Assembly: GCA_965205485.1 (NCBI GenBank)
Contig: OZ242180.1
Coordinates: 1,344,001-1,408,000, forward strand
Length of the DNA stretch: 64,000 nt
Direction of reading: 5' to 3'
From: Candidatus Latescibacterota bacterium
GTDB lineage: Bacteria; Latescibacterota; UBA2968; GCA-2709665
This document shows positions 9,001 through 42,000 of the stretch, in pieces. Position 1 is the stretch's first letter. Every line of letters begins with the position of its first letter. Made by a program: the position numbers.

Positions 9001-12000
9001 TCGCGGTATCGCCGAAGATCTGCGGCAGAACGTTCGGTAAGCGTATTTTGCCAGGCGTTTACGCCCACTTCTTCCGCGCGTCGGAGGGTCGCCATCACCT
9101 GGTCCGACGAATTGGCTTCTCTCTGATGCTCTGAGAGTAACTGATTGAAGTGCGAATACCCGTAGATCGGATTGTCGCCCATGATGAGCCGGCTGATCCG
9201 ATATCGTCCAAACGGGACCTTTGGAAGGTTTACCGCATTCAATTCGGACACGCCTTATCCTCAATTCGAAAATGGCAAATTGACCACAAAAAGCACAAAA
9301 AGGACCGGTGCGAAACGGGGTATCGAGGTCGTTCATAAGGATGATATTTGCGTTCACGTCCGGTGACCAGATGTATCCTGGTAGTCCGCAGTTTAATCGC
9401 ATTTATCAGATTGCAAATATACGATTTAACGTCCCCGAAAAACGACGAGTCAAGGTTGCCTCCTCTGTCCTGCATCTCCTCAATCAAAAACAAGCACTGT
9501 TCGCGCGACTCTACCCTGGACCATATCTTCGAATGCCTCGTTGATCTCATCCAGAGGGCGGTAGCGGGATATCAACTCGTCCAGCTTGACCTTTCCCTGA
9601 CGGTACAGATCCAGAATCCAGAGGAAATCCACCCGGGCGCGGGCGGCACCGTGCCAGGAACCCATCACGGCGCGGTCCCGCAAGAGATCATCGCCGTCAA
9701 CGGAAACATCCTGGCCGGTGGGCTGCACCCCCACCATTACCGCGGTTCCACTGGTGCGGACCGATGCAAACGCCTGCCTGACCAGCGCCGGAAATCCAAC
9801 GACTTCAAAGGCATAGTCAGCGCCGCCGCCGGTGATCTCCAAGATCCGCTGTACGGGATCTTCGCTTCCGGCGTTGACGAAATGCGTGGCGCCGAACTGT
9901 TCCGCCAACTCCAGTTTGTAAGTTACCCGGTCCACGGCGATGATCTTTCCCGCCGATGCGAGCACACCGCCCTGGATGACGTTGAGGCCCACGCCCCCGC
10001 AGCCGAACACCGCCATTGTGGCGCCTGCTTCCACCTGTGCGCGATTGACCACGGCGCCGATACCGGTAATGACCGCGCAGCTGATCAGACACGCGCTGCG
10101 AAGGTTCGTGTCATCCGGCACCCTGACGCACGCATCCGCCGATACGATGGTCTGTTCGGTATACGTGGGCCTGTTGTGGAAATAGACCTTCCCGTTCCTG
10201 GAGATGCGACTCGGGATTTCGCCCTGATGGGTTTCGCAAAGCGCGGGGCTTCCCTCGCTGCAATTGCGGCAATGGCCGCACATAGCATCGAGTGAGAGGA
10301 TGATCCTGTCGCCGCATCCAACGCTGGTCACACCCGGGCCGACTTCCCTGACGATCCCAGCGCCCTCGTGTCCCATCACCCAGGGAAGCGCGCGAGGCGC
10401 GACATGCCCGTCGACGAGGTGATAGTCGCTGTGGCAAACCCCGGCGCCGACGATCTCGAGAAGCACTTCACCCTCGCGAGGAGGCGCGATTTCCACTTCT
10501 TCGACGGAGACGCGGGTCAGCGGTCTGTGGAGAACGGCGGCTTTCATTTCTGTCTCTTTTCGCAAATGGCGCTGAAAAACAAGGCATTTTGGTGGATTGA
10601 CAGATGTGCTGAACTCAGGTCGATTACCGAAGGGTCAGCCAGTCTCGATGCCAATGCGGGCAAGGACGTCCGACCACCGTTTCGCATGGGTGTCGTGGGT
10701 GTGCAGGGGCCGGAAGCCGGCGGAGAGATAGCTCTTGATGGCCGGGACGCGCCAGTCGTCGGTCAACAGGTGGGCCTGGCGATAGCCCAGGTCTTTGAGC
10801 CGGTGGAGTACGGCCGCGTTGACAAGGTGTCCCAGGCCCTTGCCGCGCTGGCTTTCGTGTACGGCAACCATGTGCACTTCACCCACGATGCGTTCCGTCA
10901 GGTCCCGGCTCCAGGCGCACGCGGAACCCACAAGTCGGGAATCGAGTGTGGCGAAAAAGAGGCTGTCGGGATGAAACCGAGGATCGTTGACGAGTTTCTC
11001 ACGACACAATTCAGGCGTCCAGTCCCGTCCCACGTTGCCTTCCATGATTGCGCACCACCCCGCTTCGTCGCCGGACCGGTAGGTTCGCAGGCCATACCCT
11101 TCGGGGATCCGGACCTCCGGCAGGTCCTGCAGCGTATCCCTCTGCATTTCCAGCTGGGGCGACGGAGGCGGAGGCGGCTTGGCGTTCAAAAAGGAAAGTA
11201 CCCGGCGAAACATGGCTTGTTTCTCGTCAGAAAACCGTGGCAGGAACCGGACGCACACCGGACAGACGCTTTCAACGGTCTGTCAGGGGACAACTAGTGT
11301 TCTGTCCCGGAAATAAGTTGCCTGAATTCGACCGCCGAGTCGCCCGGCTCGCGAGGCGCCTGAGCGCAGCCGACCTGCGTATGGTCGGCGAGCGAGGGGA
11401 ACGTAGCGAGACGGGATGAATCGCCGGTCGAATGGTGAGGAATTTTTGGGACAGGACACTATCGATCGTCGTCGACGAATTCGCGATTGGCGCATCTCAC
11501 TTCAATCGCACTCCGTACTGAGCGACAATATGAGCGACATCGCGGTCTGTGTCAACGGATATTCGCCCGTTCGAGCCGTGAATCGGCGGCCCGGATTCCC
11601 GCGTTCAGGGCTGGATTGTCGCCCCCAAACGGACCTCGCAATCGCACGCAGAAATATGCGTGTTGATTGTTCTGGAATGGCTTGACATTTAACAATCCTT
11701 ATGATATACTAACACCGCCGAAAAGCGGTCGTCGGAAGAAGTACTATTCCAGAACTGCTTTTTTAGCAGTCCGTTGATAAAGTCGCTCCGCAGGCGAGGC
11801 CGAGCCATTGTGGCCGAAGACAAGGCGCGCAACCGAGTCCCATCCTGCGATTCGGCGAGGGCGCGCAACGCAGTATTTCGACCGCAAGGGCCGGCCGTAG
11901 CCCGGATGGACTTTTTCAACGGGCTGTTAGCCCGCGAGAGGTCCAGGGACACGATGCTGGTCGATTATCTTCCGATTGTTATTCTGATGGCAGTTGCCGT

Positions 12001-39000: not shown

Positions 39001-42000
39001 ACGGAACTCATCAACAACGTCGCCAGCAGTCACGGGGGATATTCGGTATTCGCAGGCGTGGGGGAACGCACCCGCGAGGGAAACGACCTGCTTCACGAAC
39101 TGTCGGACTCGGGCGTGATCGATCGGACGGCGATGGTTTTCGGCCAGATGAACGAGCCGCCTGGCGCCCGCCAGCGCATCGCCCTCACCGGACTGACCAT
39201 TGCGGAACACTTCCGGGAAGAGGCCGGGCAGGACGTACTCCTGTTCATCGACAACATCTTCCGCTTCATCCTCGCCGGCGCGGAGGTGTCCGCGCTTCTG
39301 GGCCGGATGCCCTCTGCGGTGGGTTACCAGCCGACGCTGGCGACCGAAATGGGCGCGCTACAGGAACGGATCACGACGACCCGCAACGGTTCCATTACCT
39401 CTGTGCAGGCCATCTACGTGCCCGCCGACGACTATACGGACCCGGGCGTGGTGACGGCATTCAGCCACCTTGACGGCCGAATCGTACTGGAACGCGCGCT
39501 GGCGGACCAGGGGATGTATCCGGCCGTGGACCCGCTGGCGTCCAGTTCGCGAATCCTCGACCCCCGCGTGGTGGGCGAGGAACACTACGAGGTCGCGCGC
39601 CAGGTGCAGCAGATCCTGCAGCGTTATCGCGACCTGCGGGAGATCATCGCCATTCTGGGAATCGACGAACTGTCCGAGGAAGACAGGCTGGTGGTGGCGC
39701 GGGCGCGCAAGATCCAGGCTTTCCTCACGCAGTGTATGCACGTGGCCGAGGGCTTTACGGGCTACCCGGGCGAATACGTCAAGATCGAAGACACGGTGAA
39801 GGGGTTCAAGGGATTGGCCGAAGGGGAATACGACGATCTGCCCGAGCAGGCATTCCATCTGGTCGGAACGATTGAACAGGCCGTAGAGAAGGCAAAGACG
39901 CTCTAGTTACAGGAACGCGATGCCGACGTTTCAGCTTGAAATTGTAACCCCGGAAAAGACGGTCTACTCGGGCGAGGTGGAGCAACTGCGGGCGCCGGGT
40001 ACCGAAGGCGGGTTCGGCGTGCTCGCGGGACACCATCCGATGCTGGCCTCGCTGCGCATTGGAGAGATGGTCTTTTTCGAAGGGGAACAGGGACCGAAGT
40101 CGGTCGCAATCAGTGGCGGGTTCGCTGAGGTGCAGCGCGACCGCGTCACCGTGCTGGCCGAGACAGCGGAATTCGCGCCGGATATTGACGTAAACCGAGC
40201 CGAAGCCGCCAGAGACCGCGCGCGGGAAATGCTGACGCGAAAACAAGAACAGCAGATTGACGAGGCGCGGGCGACGTTGGCCCTGGCGCGGGCTGTCAAC
40301 CGGCTGCGGATCGGGGTACAATAGGGCGGACTGGAAGACAATGCCTCAGCCGCGGTTCAGCGTGGGTGGGTTTCAAAACCCACCCGCTTTTTTGTTCCTA
40401 AAACCCGTATCGATGATTTCCGCTAGCGGGCCGGGGAAACCCCACCAGCCCTCTACAGAGAATAGTGGGTTTATCCGGAATGGAACTCAGTTGGGTCATG
40501 GACATGTACCGTTTTACACTGCTCGTATCCGAGTAACCACACGGGATACTTAAACGATGTCAATCAGGAGCACGACCAGAGCAGAGCGCGTTGTTCCGTT
40601 CAGCACCGACCTTTGATGTTCTTACGCGGCCGGTAGGGCAGTGGACCATGTGCATACAGTGAGGCAATTCGCGCTGTGCATATGGCAGGCCCCGCGCCCA
40701 GCGGCGACTTTTGGTTCCTTTTGGTCGCTTCAAAAGGAACACGCCGTAGGCAGGGAATTTGGGGAATAGGGGTTATTGCTTTTGATTTGGTTTTTGAATT
40801 TGCCTTTCGATTTTAGCTGACTGCTGATAGCTGATGGCTGCTTTAATTCTCACCTTTCAAGGGTTTCTACATGACAAATCCCACTATCGACCTCCTGCTT
40901 TCTCACAGAAGTATCCGCAGGTTCCGGAACCGGCCGCTTCCCGATGGTGTGCTCGAAACGCTGATCCAGTGCGGGCAACAGGCGAGCACGTCCAGCAACG
41001 TGCAGGCGTACACCGTTATTCACGTGGCCGATCCAAAGCGGAAGAAGCGACTGGCCGAACTCTGCGCCGACCAGGTGCAGATACACCAGAGCGCGGCGTT
41101 TCTGGCCTTCTGCGCCGATCTGCACCGGGACAGGATGGCCAACCAGATGCACGAGGCGGAGCGGTTCGACGGGGACTATGCGGAGGCGCTGATGATTGCG
41201 ACGGTGGACGTGGCGCTGATGATGCAGAACGTGGCGATCGCCGCGGAGTCGATGGGATTGGGCATCTGCATGATCGGCGCGATGCGGAACAACCCGAAAT
41301 CGGTGGGCAGGTTGCTCGATTTGCCCCCTTATGTCGTGGCCGTGGCCGGCTTCTGCATCGGGTATCCGGACCAGGCGCCGGAAGTCAAACCGCGCTTGCC
41401 GCTCGATGCGGTCCTTCATCGCGAGCGATACCTGTGCGACGAAACCCATCGACTGGCCATGGAGGAATACGACAGGACGATGGTCGAGTTCTATGCCTCG
41501 CAGGGGATGCACGAGGGCGACGAGCGATGGACAAAAGTCATGGCCGGGCGCACCGGACAGTTTCACGCCCGCGCCGAACTGGATGAATTCCTCACCGCCC
41601 AGGGCTTCCGGCTGCGGCGCTGAAATCCCTTCCGATCTGCCTTCCCCTTGACGTTCTCCACGTCATTGCGTATACATTTAGAAACAAATCAGCCCGCGCA
41701 ACCGCGAAAGAACAGAATAATGCCTGATTCGACAATAGACAGGCTCGTCGGCGAGGTCGTAAAGCGCGTAAACCCCCTGCGAATCGTGCTTTTCGGATCG
41801 GCGGCCAGGAATGAATCAGGAGAGCAGAGCGACATCGATCTGCTCGTCGTCATGCCCGATGGTGTACACCGTCGCCGGACCGCACAGAAACTCTACCGTG
41901 AGATTAAGGGTTTACGCGTGCCATTCGATATCGTCGTTGCAACCGTAAAGGACCTGGAACAGCACAAGGATAATGACAGATTGATCTACAAGAACGCCCT

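Follow-up and report, generated by a model that had tools for sequence, protein, structure and literature searches.

The interval between nuoM and nuoN in the complex I operon of this Candidatus Latescibacterota genome is a variable slot. Among the 25 genomes of the order that carry a nuoN of the type described here, the slot holds a Mrp antiporter in 17, a single-gene PF16980 transporter in seven, and is empty in one. We propose, at a probability of about 0.72, that the slot serves to co-express a Na+/H+ antiporter with a H+-pumping complex I and a H+-ATP synthase. The interval would act as an expression slot for the antiporter, filled here by a three-pump Mrp that would assemble by itself, braced by the lateral helix of its D3 subunit, and in sister genera by a single-gene antiporter of the IT family. 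The 14-subunit complex I would pump protons, the antiporter would draw on part of the proton gradient to export Na+ and keep pH stable, and what is left would drive the H+-type ATP synthase. Its own nuoB, from the suf operon, and its own nuoI, from an rny cluster, would complete complex I in trans.

Coordinates refer to the window, the whole 64,000-nt stretch of contig OZ242180.1 that was analysed, with position 1 at contig position 1,344,001. The genome-wide survey's note had described a co-oriented run of nuoA-CD-E-F-G-H-J-K-L-M, mrp, nuoN and atp, with a whole ten-gene Mrp nested between nuoM and nuoN. Profile searches and coordinates confirmed this order from nuoA to atpC, with every gene on the plus strand and an 81-aa ORF counted among the ten Mrp genes. 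The features of the run are as follows.

11682..11710, plus strand: sigma-70-type promoter before nuoA, TTGACA-17-TATACT, 11/12 consensus match
11764..11933, no strand: dispersed palindromic repeat R1 in the promoter-nuoA gap, 68 genome matches of at least 100 nt
11954..12319, plus strand: nuoA (PF00507)
12376..14148, plus strand: fused nuoCD (PF00329+PF00346, TIGR01962)
14179..17637, plus strand: nuoE, nuoF and a short nuoG (profile searches)
17652..18692, plus strand: nuoH (PF00146), with nuoI not downstream
18699..18868, no strand: dispersed repeat R2 with terminal inverted ends in the nuoH-nuoJ gap, 92 genome matches
18890..20052, plus strand: nuoJ and nuoK (profile searches)
20096..21955, plus strand: nuoL, ordinary lateral helix with 52 residues between anchor motifs
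21960..23486, plus strand: nuoM (TIGR01972), left border of the slot
23542..25957, plus strand: mrpE, mrpF, mrpG, mrpB1, mrpB2 and mrpC (PF01899, PF04066, PF03334, PF13244+PF20501, PF04039, PF00420)
25957..28937, plus strand: mrpD1 and mrpD2, both antiporter-like, TM5 Glu and TM7/TM12 Lys intact
29099..29344, plus strand: 81-aa membrane ORF of no known family
29337..31025, plus strand: mrpD3, NuoL/MrpA-like with its own lateral helix (PRK12668 above cut-off)
31149..31185, plus strand: conserved non-coding element upstream of nuoN, CTTGACTTTT ... TTWATTAA (sequence comparison)
31215..32663, plus strand: nuoN (TIGR01770), right border of the slot
32727..40324, plus strand: atp operon, two atpI-type genes followed by atpBEFHAGDC (profile searches)
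40362..40387, plus strand: intrinsic terminator ending the run, 11-bp stem and T tail, best of its scan

Upstream of nuoA, nine of nine genomes read have a TTGAC box together with a -10-like hexamer. Further copies of repeat R1 lie near 28924-29079 and 35774-35845, and the repeat is missing upstream of nuoA in G013. The gap between nuoA and nuoCD measures 56 nt and contains no nuoB, while the short NuoG (538 aa) carries CxxCxxxC-x27-C. The element before nuoN was present in all seven family-f1 genomes, whichever the slot content, and was not seen in four family-f2 and four outgroup genomes; a consensus promoter scan did not call it. It may represent an internal promoter or operator for nuoN-atp. 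Co-transcription is presumed in our proposal, and given this conserved element and gaps of 189-320 nt the run may be split into several transcripts. The c subunit of the ATP synthase reads as probably H+-type by the residues of the Na+ motif.

Of 53 genomes of the order, 42 have mrpE, seven have the single gene and none (0/53) has both, a mutual exclusion that rests on few independent events among related genomes. Sister genomes differ in slot content (G003/G021, G030/G031 and G027/G028; tree support 99-100), and the single gene also occupies the slot in two out-of-class genomes (G058 and G059) and in 7 of 80 public loci, five of these from Poribacteria. Pump genes were observed in whole sets of three, nine in Mrp genomes and six in single-gene genomes. 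The single gene is probably the older occupant; a Mrp tree did not bear out vertical descent across the order, with f1 grouping with f4 (0.961) and its own support at 0.652. The occupant is not essential, since the slot is empty in G027, G077 and G078, and G000 additionally encodes three CPA-family exchangers. We found nqrA absent in five of five genomes.

Empty slots are also what neutral hitch-hiking would leave. The slot would then be a site at which a highly expressed operon tolerates insertions, and one or the other of two ancestral antiporters would have been lost as redundant, with no selected coupling to complex I. Mrp does survive alone, both in family f4 and in 22 genomes of g7 and g11 that have mrpE and lack complex I of the window type, and in G024 mrp directly precedes atp following the loss of that complex, as hitch-hiking would allow. 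However, antiporter labels are attached to both occupants, the single gene lies within or next to nuo genes in several phyla, and the slot never held another kind of gene among the genomes read, and we consider this explanation unlikely.

The equivalence of the two occupants depends on what the single gene transports. Its protein matched PF16980 at about 600 bits and CitMHS weakly, and the Pfam name of PF16980 is 'putative citrate transport', whereas the source labels read 'sodium:proton antiporter' (NCBI) or 'NhaD/arsenite permease-like'; exact sequence look-ups of these proteins returned no names. One homolog, from a Neisseria sp., shares 53% identity, and the NhaE proteins of N. meningitidis and R. 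marinus are IT-superfamily members with tested Na+/H+ exchange (PMC9408914, in excerpt). Judged from PF16980, the label and the Neisseria sp. identity, the occupant may be kin to NhaE (TC 2.A.111). The single-gene occupant is a putative IT-family Na+/H+ antiporter, with an activity that we infer from the database labels. If it were instead a carrier of carboxylates or other anions, as its Pfam name and CitMHS match could indicate, the occupants would not be equivalent and their mutual exclusion would be due to chance, to which the small number of independent events lends some room. The sodium:proton labels, the Neisseria sp. homolog and the complete lack of co-occurrence argue against an anion carrier, which we regard as very unlikely.

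The Mrp of the window has the composition of a group 3 Mrp (CPA3), with A/D-type, B, C, E, F and G subunits all present in irregular order. Stop and start codons overlap among the genes from mrpE to mrpC (the mrpE start was placed by inference from the G021 junction). The mrpB1 product is of the MbhD+MbhE type, equal to the C-terminal part of MrpA, and mrpB2 encodes MnhB. An AlphaFold model of MrpD3 (mean pLDDT 85.9) has the lateral helix and closing TM helix of an A-type subunit, with helices at 449-472, 486-531 and 543-561, of which 486-531 was modelled at lower confidence (about 60-73), and NuoL/MrpA folds were among its top structural matches (Z about 41-42). The MrpD3 strap spans 58 residues in 58 of 58 copies, nested and free alike. 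The 81-aa ORF was recovered in 73 copies from 87 loci tried, an Atlas search with it returned hypothetical clusters only, and its binding to MrpD3 was predicted with a score of 0.73 compared to 0.00 for the best control. It is probably a tenth, as yet unrecognised subunit of three-pump Mrp antiporters.

Residues with roles in the cation path (MrpF D29/R30/D35/D59, MrpG D/R/P, MrpC H37 and MrpA-C E/R/E; PMC7419157 and PMC8165549, both in excerpt) are mostly kept, but Asn stands at D35f and Gln at H37c, both in nested and in free copies; the cation carried by a Mrp with these two residues is not certain. For each of the 31 residues tested, the one most frequent in free copies was found in nested copies too. 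Of 80 loci with the cassette, 76 lack nuoM/nuoN flanks, and free-standing E-F-G-B-B-C-D-D-orf-D cassettes were observed in Alphaproteobacteria, Gemmatimonadota, Planctomycetota and Myxococcota. Because the cassettes are mostly free of nuo genes, include their own NuoL-like strap subunit and share residues whether nested or free, the nested Mrp looks autonomous, most likely assembling separately and not built into complex I.

Complex I itself has a complete 14-subunit set, 12 in the window and the cognate nuoB and nuoI elsewhere. TM5 Glu, TM7 Lys and TM12 Lys/Glu are present in the alignment of NuoL, NuoM and NuoN, and its sequences suggest an ordinary 14-subunit, putatively H+-pumping enzyme. 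Aligned to residues 6-600 of T. thermophilus Nqo12, the window NuoL has no block insertion, and the strap is 52 residues in six of six orthologs, the window's included, which bears out an earlier remark that nuoL lacks an extension for extra pumps. The second NuoL of the genome is 25 residues longer, yet its complex has only one nuoM, so strap length is an imperfect guide to pump number. We rejected Mrp as a fourth pump for this long-strap NuoL2 as a general account, since the long strap also occurs in G001-G003, which lack Mrp.

The genome-wide survey's note had also hinted at a physical assembly of Mrp with complex I, which is not supported, since the slot can hold an unrelated gene or nothing and the NuoL strap is ordinary. 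Such a hybrid would have the redox arm dock on Mrp as in MBS/MBH, or Mrp pumps lengthening the membrane arm, to give a Na+-coupled or many-pump enzyme. The nesting is kept in both families, the best solved relatives of B1, D1 and D3 are MBS/MBH subunits, and complex I clusters with MrpD-like subunits are known (PMC9040806, in excerpt), all of which would fit. However, nuoAHJKLMN are complete, where Mrp as sole membrane arm would be expected of an MBS/MBH hybrid; NuoL lacks the lateral-helix insertion of ~26 residues of extra-pump enzymes; and the pumps accompany mrpEFGBC and their own strap subunit rather than standing without a Na+ module. In addition, the nested Mrp is unchanged in length and residues, and the operon is otherwise identical with a non-homologous gene or an empty slot, making a hybrid highly improbable. 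We give just as little credence to the nested Mrp as a second Na+-translocating arm or bound partner, with NADH oxidation switchable between H+ pumping and direct Na+ extrusion and quinone-module assembly gated by the Rrf2-linked nuoB of the suf operon.

The co-expression that we favor includes a complex I completed from other loci. The genome contains two nuoB and two nuoI-class genes, none of them within the nuo-mrp-atp run, at the following contig positions.

4260891-4261385: displaced nuoB, between rrf2 and nfuA, downstream of sufBCDSUT
4831631-4832128: displaced nuoI, between rny and an iscU-like gene
4253723-4242902, minus strand: 11-subunit nuo operon with the other nuoB and nuoI, diverging from the same suf operon

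The 11-subunit operon lies ~8 kb from the displaced nuoB. Adjacency of nuoB and rrf2, previously put at 17 or more of 52 order genomes, was observed in 21 of 53; the 17 of 25 genomes with Mrp in the slot likewise exceed the five of eight relatives counted before. The suf-locus nuoB is 88-94% identical to the in-operon nuoB of relatives and is its ortholog, as had been claimed, and this ortholog occupies the canonical operon position in eight relatives. In 56 of 56 loci, homologs of the displaced nuoI adjoin a nuoH that resembles the window NuoH more closely than it does NuoH2. By these comparisons the displaced genes are the cognate subunits of the window complex I, contrary to the suggestion that the 11-subunit complex could lend B and I; its copies share 54% and 38% identity with the displaced ones and stand in their own operon. 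Both displaced genes occur in 27 of the 53 genomes, nuoI only in one and neither in 25, counts that cannot assign them to one complex, as the distribution of the 11-subunit type is almost the same.

Their displacement had been presented as an exile particular to this lineage. Operons of the outgroup genomes read already lack nuoB (5/5) and, among those with the operon, nuoI (4/4), so the displacement is older than the order. Repeat R2 was rejected as a scar of nuoI deletion (it has 92 genome matches, and the G013 gap there is only ~28 nt). Two ancient nuoB paralog clades, operon and suf, were not seen: the DNA tree agrees with species relationships, its deep branches being weakly supported. 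The suf-operon location of nuoB held up, while the IscR likeness of the adjacent rrf2 did not: its protein scored 60.8 bits against the TIGR02010 (IscR equivalog) cut-off of 207.55 and passed the Rrf2 superfamily model only, with three C-terminal cysteines present. For nuoI, the adjacency to an iscU-like gene stands and the Fe-S assembly locus does not. The iscU-like protein retains one of three scaffold cysteines in seven of seven order genomes read and all three in G077, at what we take to be the motif positions. With rny the conserved neighbour and the iscU-like gene degenerate, the site reads as an rny-linked cluster, not a true Fe-S assembly locus. Consensus scans found no promoter directly before nuoB or nuoI.

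In Rhodothermus marinus, as Melo et al. are said to have described in 2005, an antiporter gene (nhaD/NhaE) lies among the complex I genes between nqo13 (nuoM) and nqo14 (nuoN), and some subunits, NuoI included, are reportedly encoded apart. The likeness consists of a Na+/H+ antiporter gene within membrane-arm genes and of subunits encoded apart. The window differs in a ten-gene Mrp for the single gene, the atp operon next to it, nuoB in the suf operon, and two antiporter types that are mutually exclusive among its sister genera. Group 3 Mrp antiporters, whose gene order is irregular (PMC5703873, in excerpt), share the full range of Mrp subunit types, two B genes, several genes of the D type and a PRK12668-type D subunit, whereas the window Mrp has three antiporter-like subunits, a NuoL-length strap on D3, the 81-aa extra subunit and Asn/Gln at two cation-path positions. 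PDB searches found no structure of this Mrp type, the best relatives being MBS, MBH and two-pump Mrp. Nuo clusters with additional antiporter-like genes are also known from 2M complex I (Chadwick 2018, via citing papers) and Manganitrophaceae Complex_I_3, which have one or two added pump genes and a 26-residue strap insertion (PMC9040806, in excerpt), whereas the window has a whole Mrp with its Na+ module and a NuoL without the insertion. Of the genomes that encode complex I, 86% have their nuo genes together at one place (PMC4453560, in excerpt), and split clusters are common (PMC3543383, PMC3144371 and 10.1101/2025.03.13.643058, likewise in excerpt). The window resembles the latter in drawing subunits from separate loci, with a fused NuoCD as in clade E (PMC4453560), and differs in that the displaced genes encode the quinone module's two Fe-S subunits and that nuoB lies in the suf or the nuo operon depending on the genome, without two gene clades. 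Among the papers that a literature search listed, none was seen to describe a layout with Mrp between nuoM and nuoN and a suf-linked nuoB, which Melo 2005, Chadwick 2018 or their supplements could contain.

Supply of NuoB, which carries cluster N2, from the suf operon could, as a tentative idea, couple complex I assembly to Fe-S status. The replacement of a ten-gene Mrp by an unrelated single gene at one address amounts to a natural test of equivalence. For the PF16980 family, which is large and poorly annotated, it supports a function in Na+/H+ antiport. It also suggests that in some lineages the Na+ movements tied to bacterial complex I may stem from a co-expressed antiporter and not from the enzyme itself. 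It is, further, a warning that Mrp genes within nuo operons are, by themselves, no evidence of extra-pump complexes.

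Family scans of 44 open reading frames in the window, with later checks, gave one + strand order of nuoA-CD-E-F-G-H-J-K-L-M, mrpE-F-G-B1-B2-C-D1-D2-orf81-D3, nuoN and atp, bearing out the genome-wide survey's note of an mrp block nested between nuoM and nuoN ahead of atp. We infer co-transcription of this run from gene spacing alone, and nuoN-atp may be transcribed separately from a conserved, family-specific element ahead of nuoN. Dispersed palindromic repeats of two families (roughly 170 nt; 68 and 92 genome hits) were also observed, some within operon gaps. Window features are as follows:

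11682-11710, strong sigma-70-type promoter opening the run
11764-11933, 18699-18868, 28924-29079, 34232-34398, 35774-35845, dispersed palindromic repeats
40362-40387, terminator closing the run

Directly past the atp operon, a lower-GC stretch (window 42091-44223) holds a Fic-domain gene and a HepT-like gene. Public loci at 78-95% identity were mostly labelled Ca. Latescibacterota.

We mapped mrpE, nuoB, nuoD, nuoI, nuoN and rrf2 in all 53 genomes of the order and examined 13 sets of loci gene by gene. This nuoN was found in 25 genomes, where the nuoM-nuoN slot held Mrp in 17 (four examined gene by gene, the remainder by coordinates), a single gene in seven (G005 by coordinates) and nothing in one, G027, whose divergent Mrp (34-51%) lies 20 kb upstream. 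In each of six Mrp-less relatives the nuoM-nuoN gap (1.5-1.9 kb) held one gene of ~490 aa, matching PF16980 at about 600 bits (4 copies tested) and labelled by database sources 'sodium:proton antiporter' or 'NhaD/arsenite permease-like'. In G020 and G026 the contig stops short of nuoN, with mrpE in the position of the slot. Across all 53 genomes, 42 carried mrpE and 7 the single gene; none carried both, and the 4 with neither were fragmented. A tree of 16 genomes, built from eight Nuo proteins and so derived from the operon itself, paired sisters with unlike slot states (G003/G021, G030/G031, G027/G028). This mutually exclusive swap within one order is new here.

Outside the order, the single gene fills the slot in G058 and G059, and the slot is empty in G077 and G078. 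Seven of the best 80 public loci for the single gene lay between nuoM and nuoN (five from Poribacteria), with several more adjoining nuoJ or nuoN. These occurrences beyond the order make the single gene the probable earlier occupant of the slot. In its tree the order's six copies form one group divided by family; in the Mrp tree f2 copies group together (0.988) and f1 copies are intermixed with those of family f4. Either an ancestor with both occupants followed by reciprocal loss, or repeated replacement in place, may account for the slot's history.

A hybrid of Mrp and complex I showed no sign in the NuoL alignment or in pump-gene numbers. The window NuoL showed no block insertion when aligned with T. 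thermophilus Nqo12, in agreement with the earlier remark that nuoL has no obvious extra-pump extension, and 9 pump genes were counted in Mrp genomes versus 6 in single-gene genomes. Chadwick 2018 is reported by citing papers to describe an extra-pump complex I with a 26-residue insertion. In NuoL2, which belongs to the second complex I, of 11 subunits, a 25-residue duplication enlarges the lateral helix (77 versus 52; 12/12 genomes measured) although each operon holds a single nuoM, which makes strap length an imperfect sign of extra pumps:

G000:C1:4246160-4248238, - strand, NuoL2 (locus L007 of the window's own genome; orthologs L252-L259, L264, L266, L267)

PMC9040806 gives 26 residues for the insertion of extra-pump complexes and a similar mismatch between strap insertion and pump number. 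Separately, an apparent frameshift interrupts nuoL of G021 (L015:10270) and may be an artefact of assembly.

The Mrp appears autonomous. Of the 80 best public loci for its cassette, which come from several phyla and include some short contigs, 76 had no nuoM/nuoN flanks; mrpE was retained without this complex I in 22 genomes of genera g7 and g11, and in G024 atp directly follows the cassette. Neither of the G000 complex I types occurs in genera g7 and g11 (L219, L227, L228, L260-L263), whose complex I is a distant third type, 11-subunit-like and with a strap of ordinary length. The cassette corresponds to group 3 Mrp as typed in PMC5703873. The predicted structure of D3 is of the NuoL/MrpA type with its own lateral and closing helices, the lateral span being 58 residues in 58/58 copies, nested and free (window NuoL, 52). 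Since this helix is longest where three pumps are spanned (PMC8165549), it is plausible that D3 braces both D2 and D1. Nested and free copies have the same charged residues. Throughout this family the D35f position is Asn and H37c is Gln, cation-path positions whose roles are treated in PMC7419157, which makes the identity of the transported cation less certain. The 81-aa orf81 travels with the cassette, and its predicted binding to D3 scored 0.73 (best of three controls, 0.00), against a mark attained by 116/157 solved complexes and 2/215 mismatches; contact agreement between runs was at least 88%, and partner pLDDT at least 70. The prediction supports binding of orf81 to D3, and orf81 is a probable tenth Mrp subunit, new here.

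Also new are the assignment of the displaced nuoB and nuoI to this complex as its cognate subunits, and the age of their displacement. In G000, a single contig of 5.13 Mb, one nuoB lies in the suf operon, flanked by rrf2 and nfuA, and one nuoI is flanked by rny and an iscU-like gene. A second nuo operon, of 11 subunits and with B and I genes of its own, runs divergently from that suf operon. Displaced nuoI was found in 28/53 order genomes and, by coordinates, never near nuoCD. Of the 80 best public loci for it, 17 were rny-linked and 56 had nuoH, in every case (56/56) nearer the window NuoH than NuoH2. By this sequence comparison the displaced nuoI is the window complex's own subunit, and a loan of B and I from the 11-subunit complex is not supported. 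Its neighbour throughout is rny, and the rny frame extends 98-194 nt into nuoI, out of frame, at 17/17 loci, out to another class; synonymous shuffling gave chance values of 0.02-0.33 per locus, the loci being kin:

G000:C1:4831631-4833845, - strand, rny and nuoI with overlapping frames (locus L009)

The iscU-like neighbour (L009:9228-9608, - strand) had been noted correctly, while the description of a Fe-S assembly locus did not hold for nuoI: within the order the iscU-like protein retains only one of the three cluster cysteines, yet it is conserved across the order. As erpA-like, queG, miaB, lipA and Rieske genes are present, the cluster is by gene content rich in Fe-S clients and not an assembly operon. 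Division of nuo genes among separate clusters is not unusual, with 86% colocalised (PMC4453560).

The suf-locus nuoB shares 88-94% identity with the nuoB lying between nuoA and nuoCD in 8 relatives (seven gene by gene, G020 by coordinates). It adjoins rrf2 in 21/53 order genomes, upholding the survey's at least 17/52, and G004 and G031 carry nuoB at both places. In five outgroup genomes nuoB was already absent from the operon, lying after sufT in G077 and before a displaced nuoG in G058 and G059. The nuoB DNA tree tracks species rather than location. Such a pattern is compatible with recurrent copying from site to site, or with a pair of copies that coexisted, were homogenised and later underwent differential loss. 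In G058 and G059 (L244, L245) nuoB and nuoG lie beside a Rieske gene, apart from the nuo operon, and G077-G079 (L241-L243) have a small cluster with two different nuoB genes and a nuoI, in G077 after suf genes. The 11-subunit nuo and suf operons, being divergent neighbours (G000:C1:4253723-4254014; also in 10 other order genomes read there), may share a control region. Elsewhere, a NuoEF-like fusion and a molybdopterin protein adjoin an fdhD-like gene (G000:C1:4123112-4127608, - strand, L010), probably an NAD-linked formate dehydrogenase that may serve the 11-subunit complex as an input module.

The closest known case is R. marinus, whose complex I cluster reportedly includes an nhaD/NhaE gene. 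In the window, the ATP synthase c subunit reads as H+-type by its ion-type motif, and nqrA was not found in 5/5 genomes searched. NhaE function is treated in PMC9408914. Co-expressing a secondary Na+/H+ antiporter with the chief proton pump and the ATP synthase would be the simplest means of driving Na+ out and forming a Na+ gradient that keeps pace with respiration.
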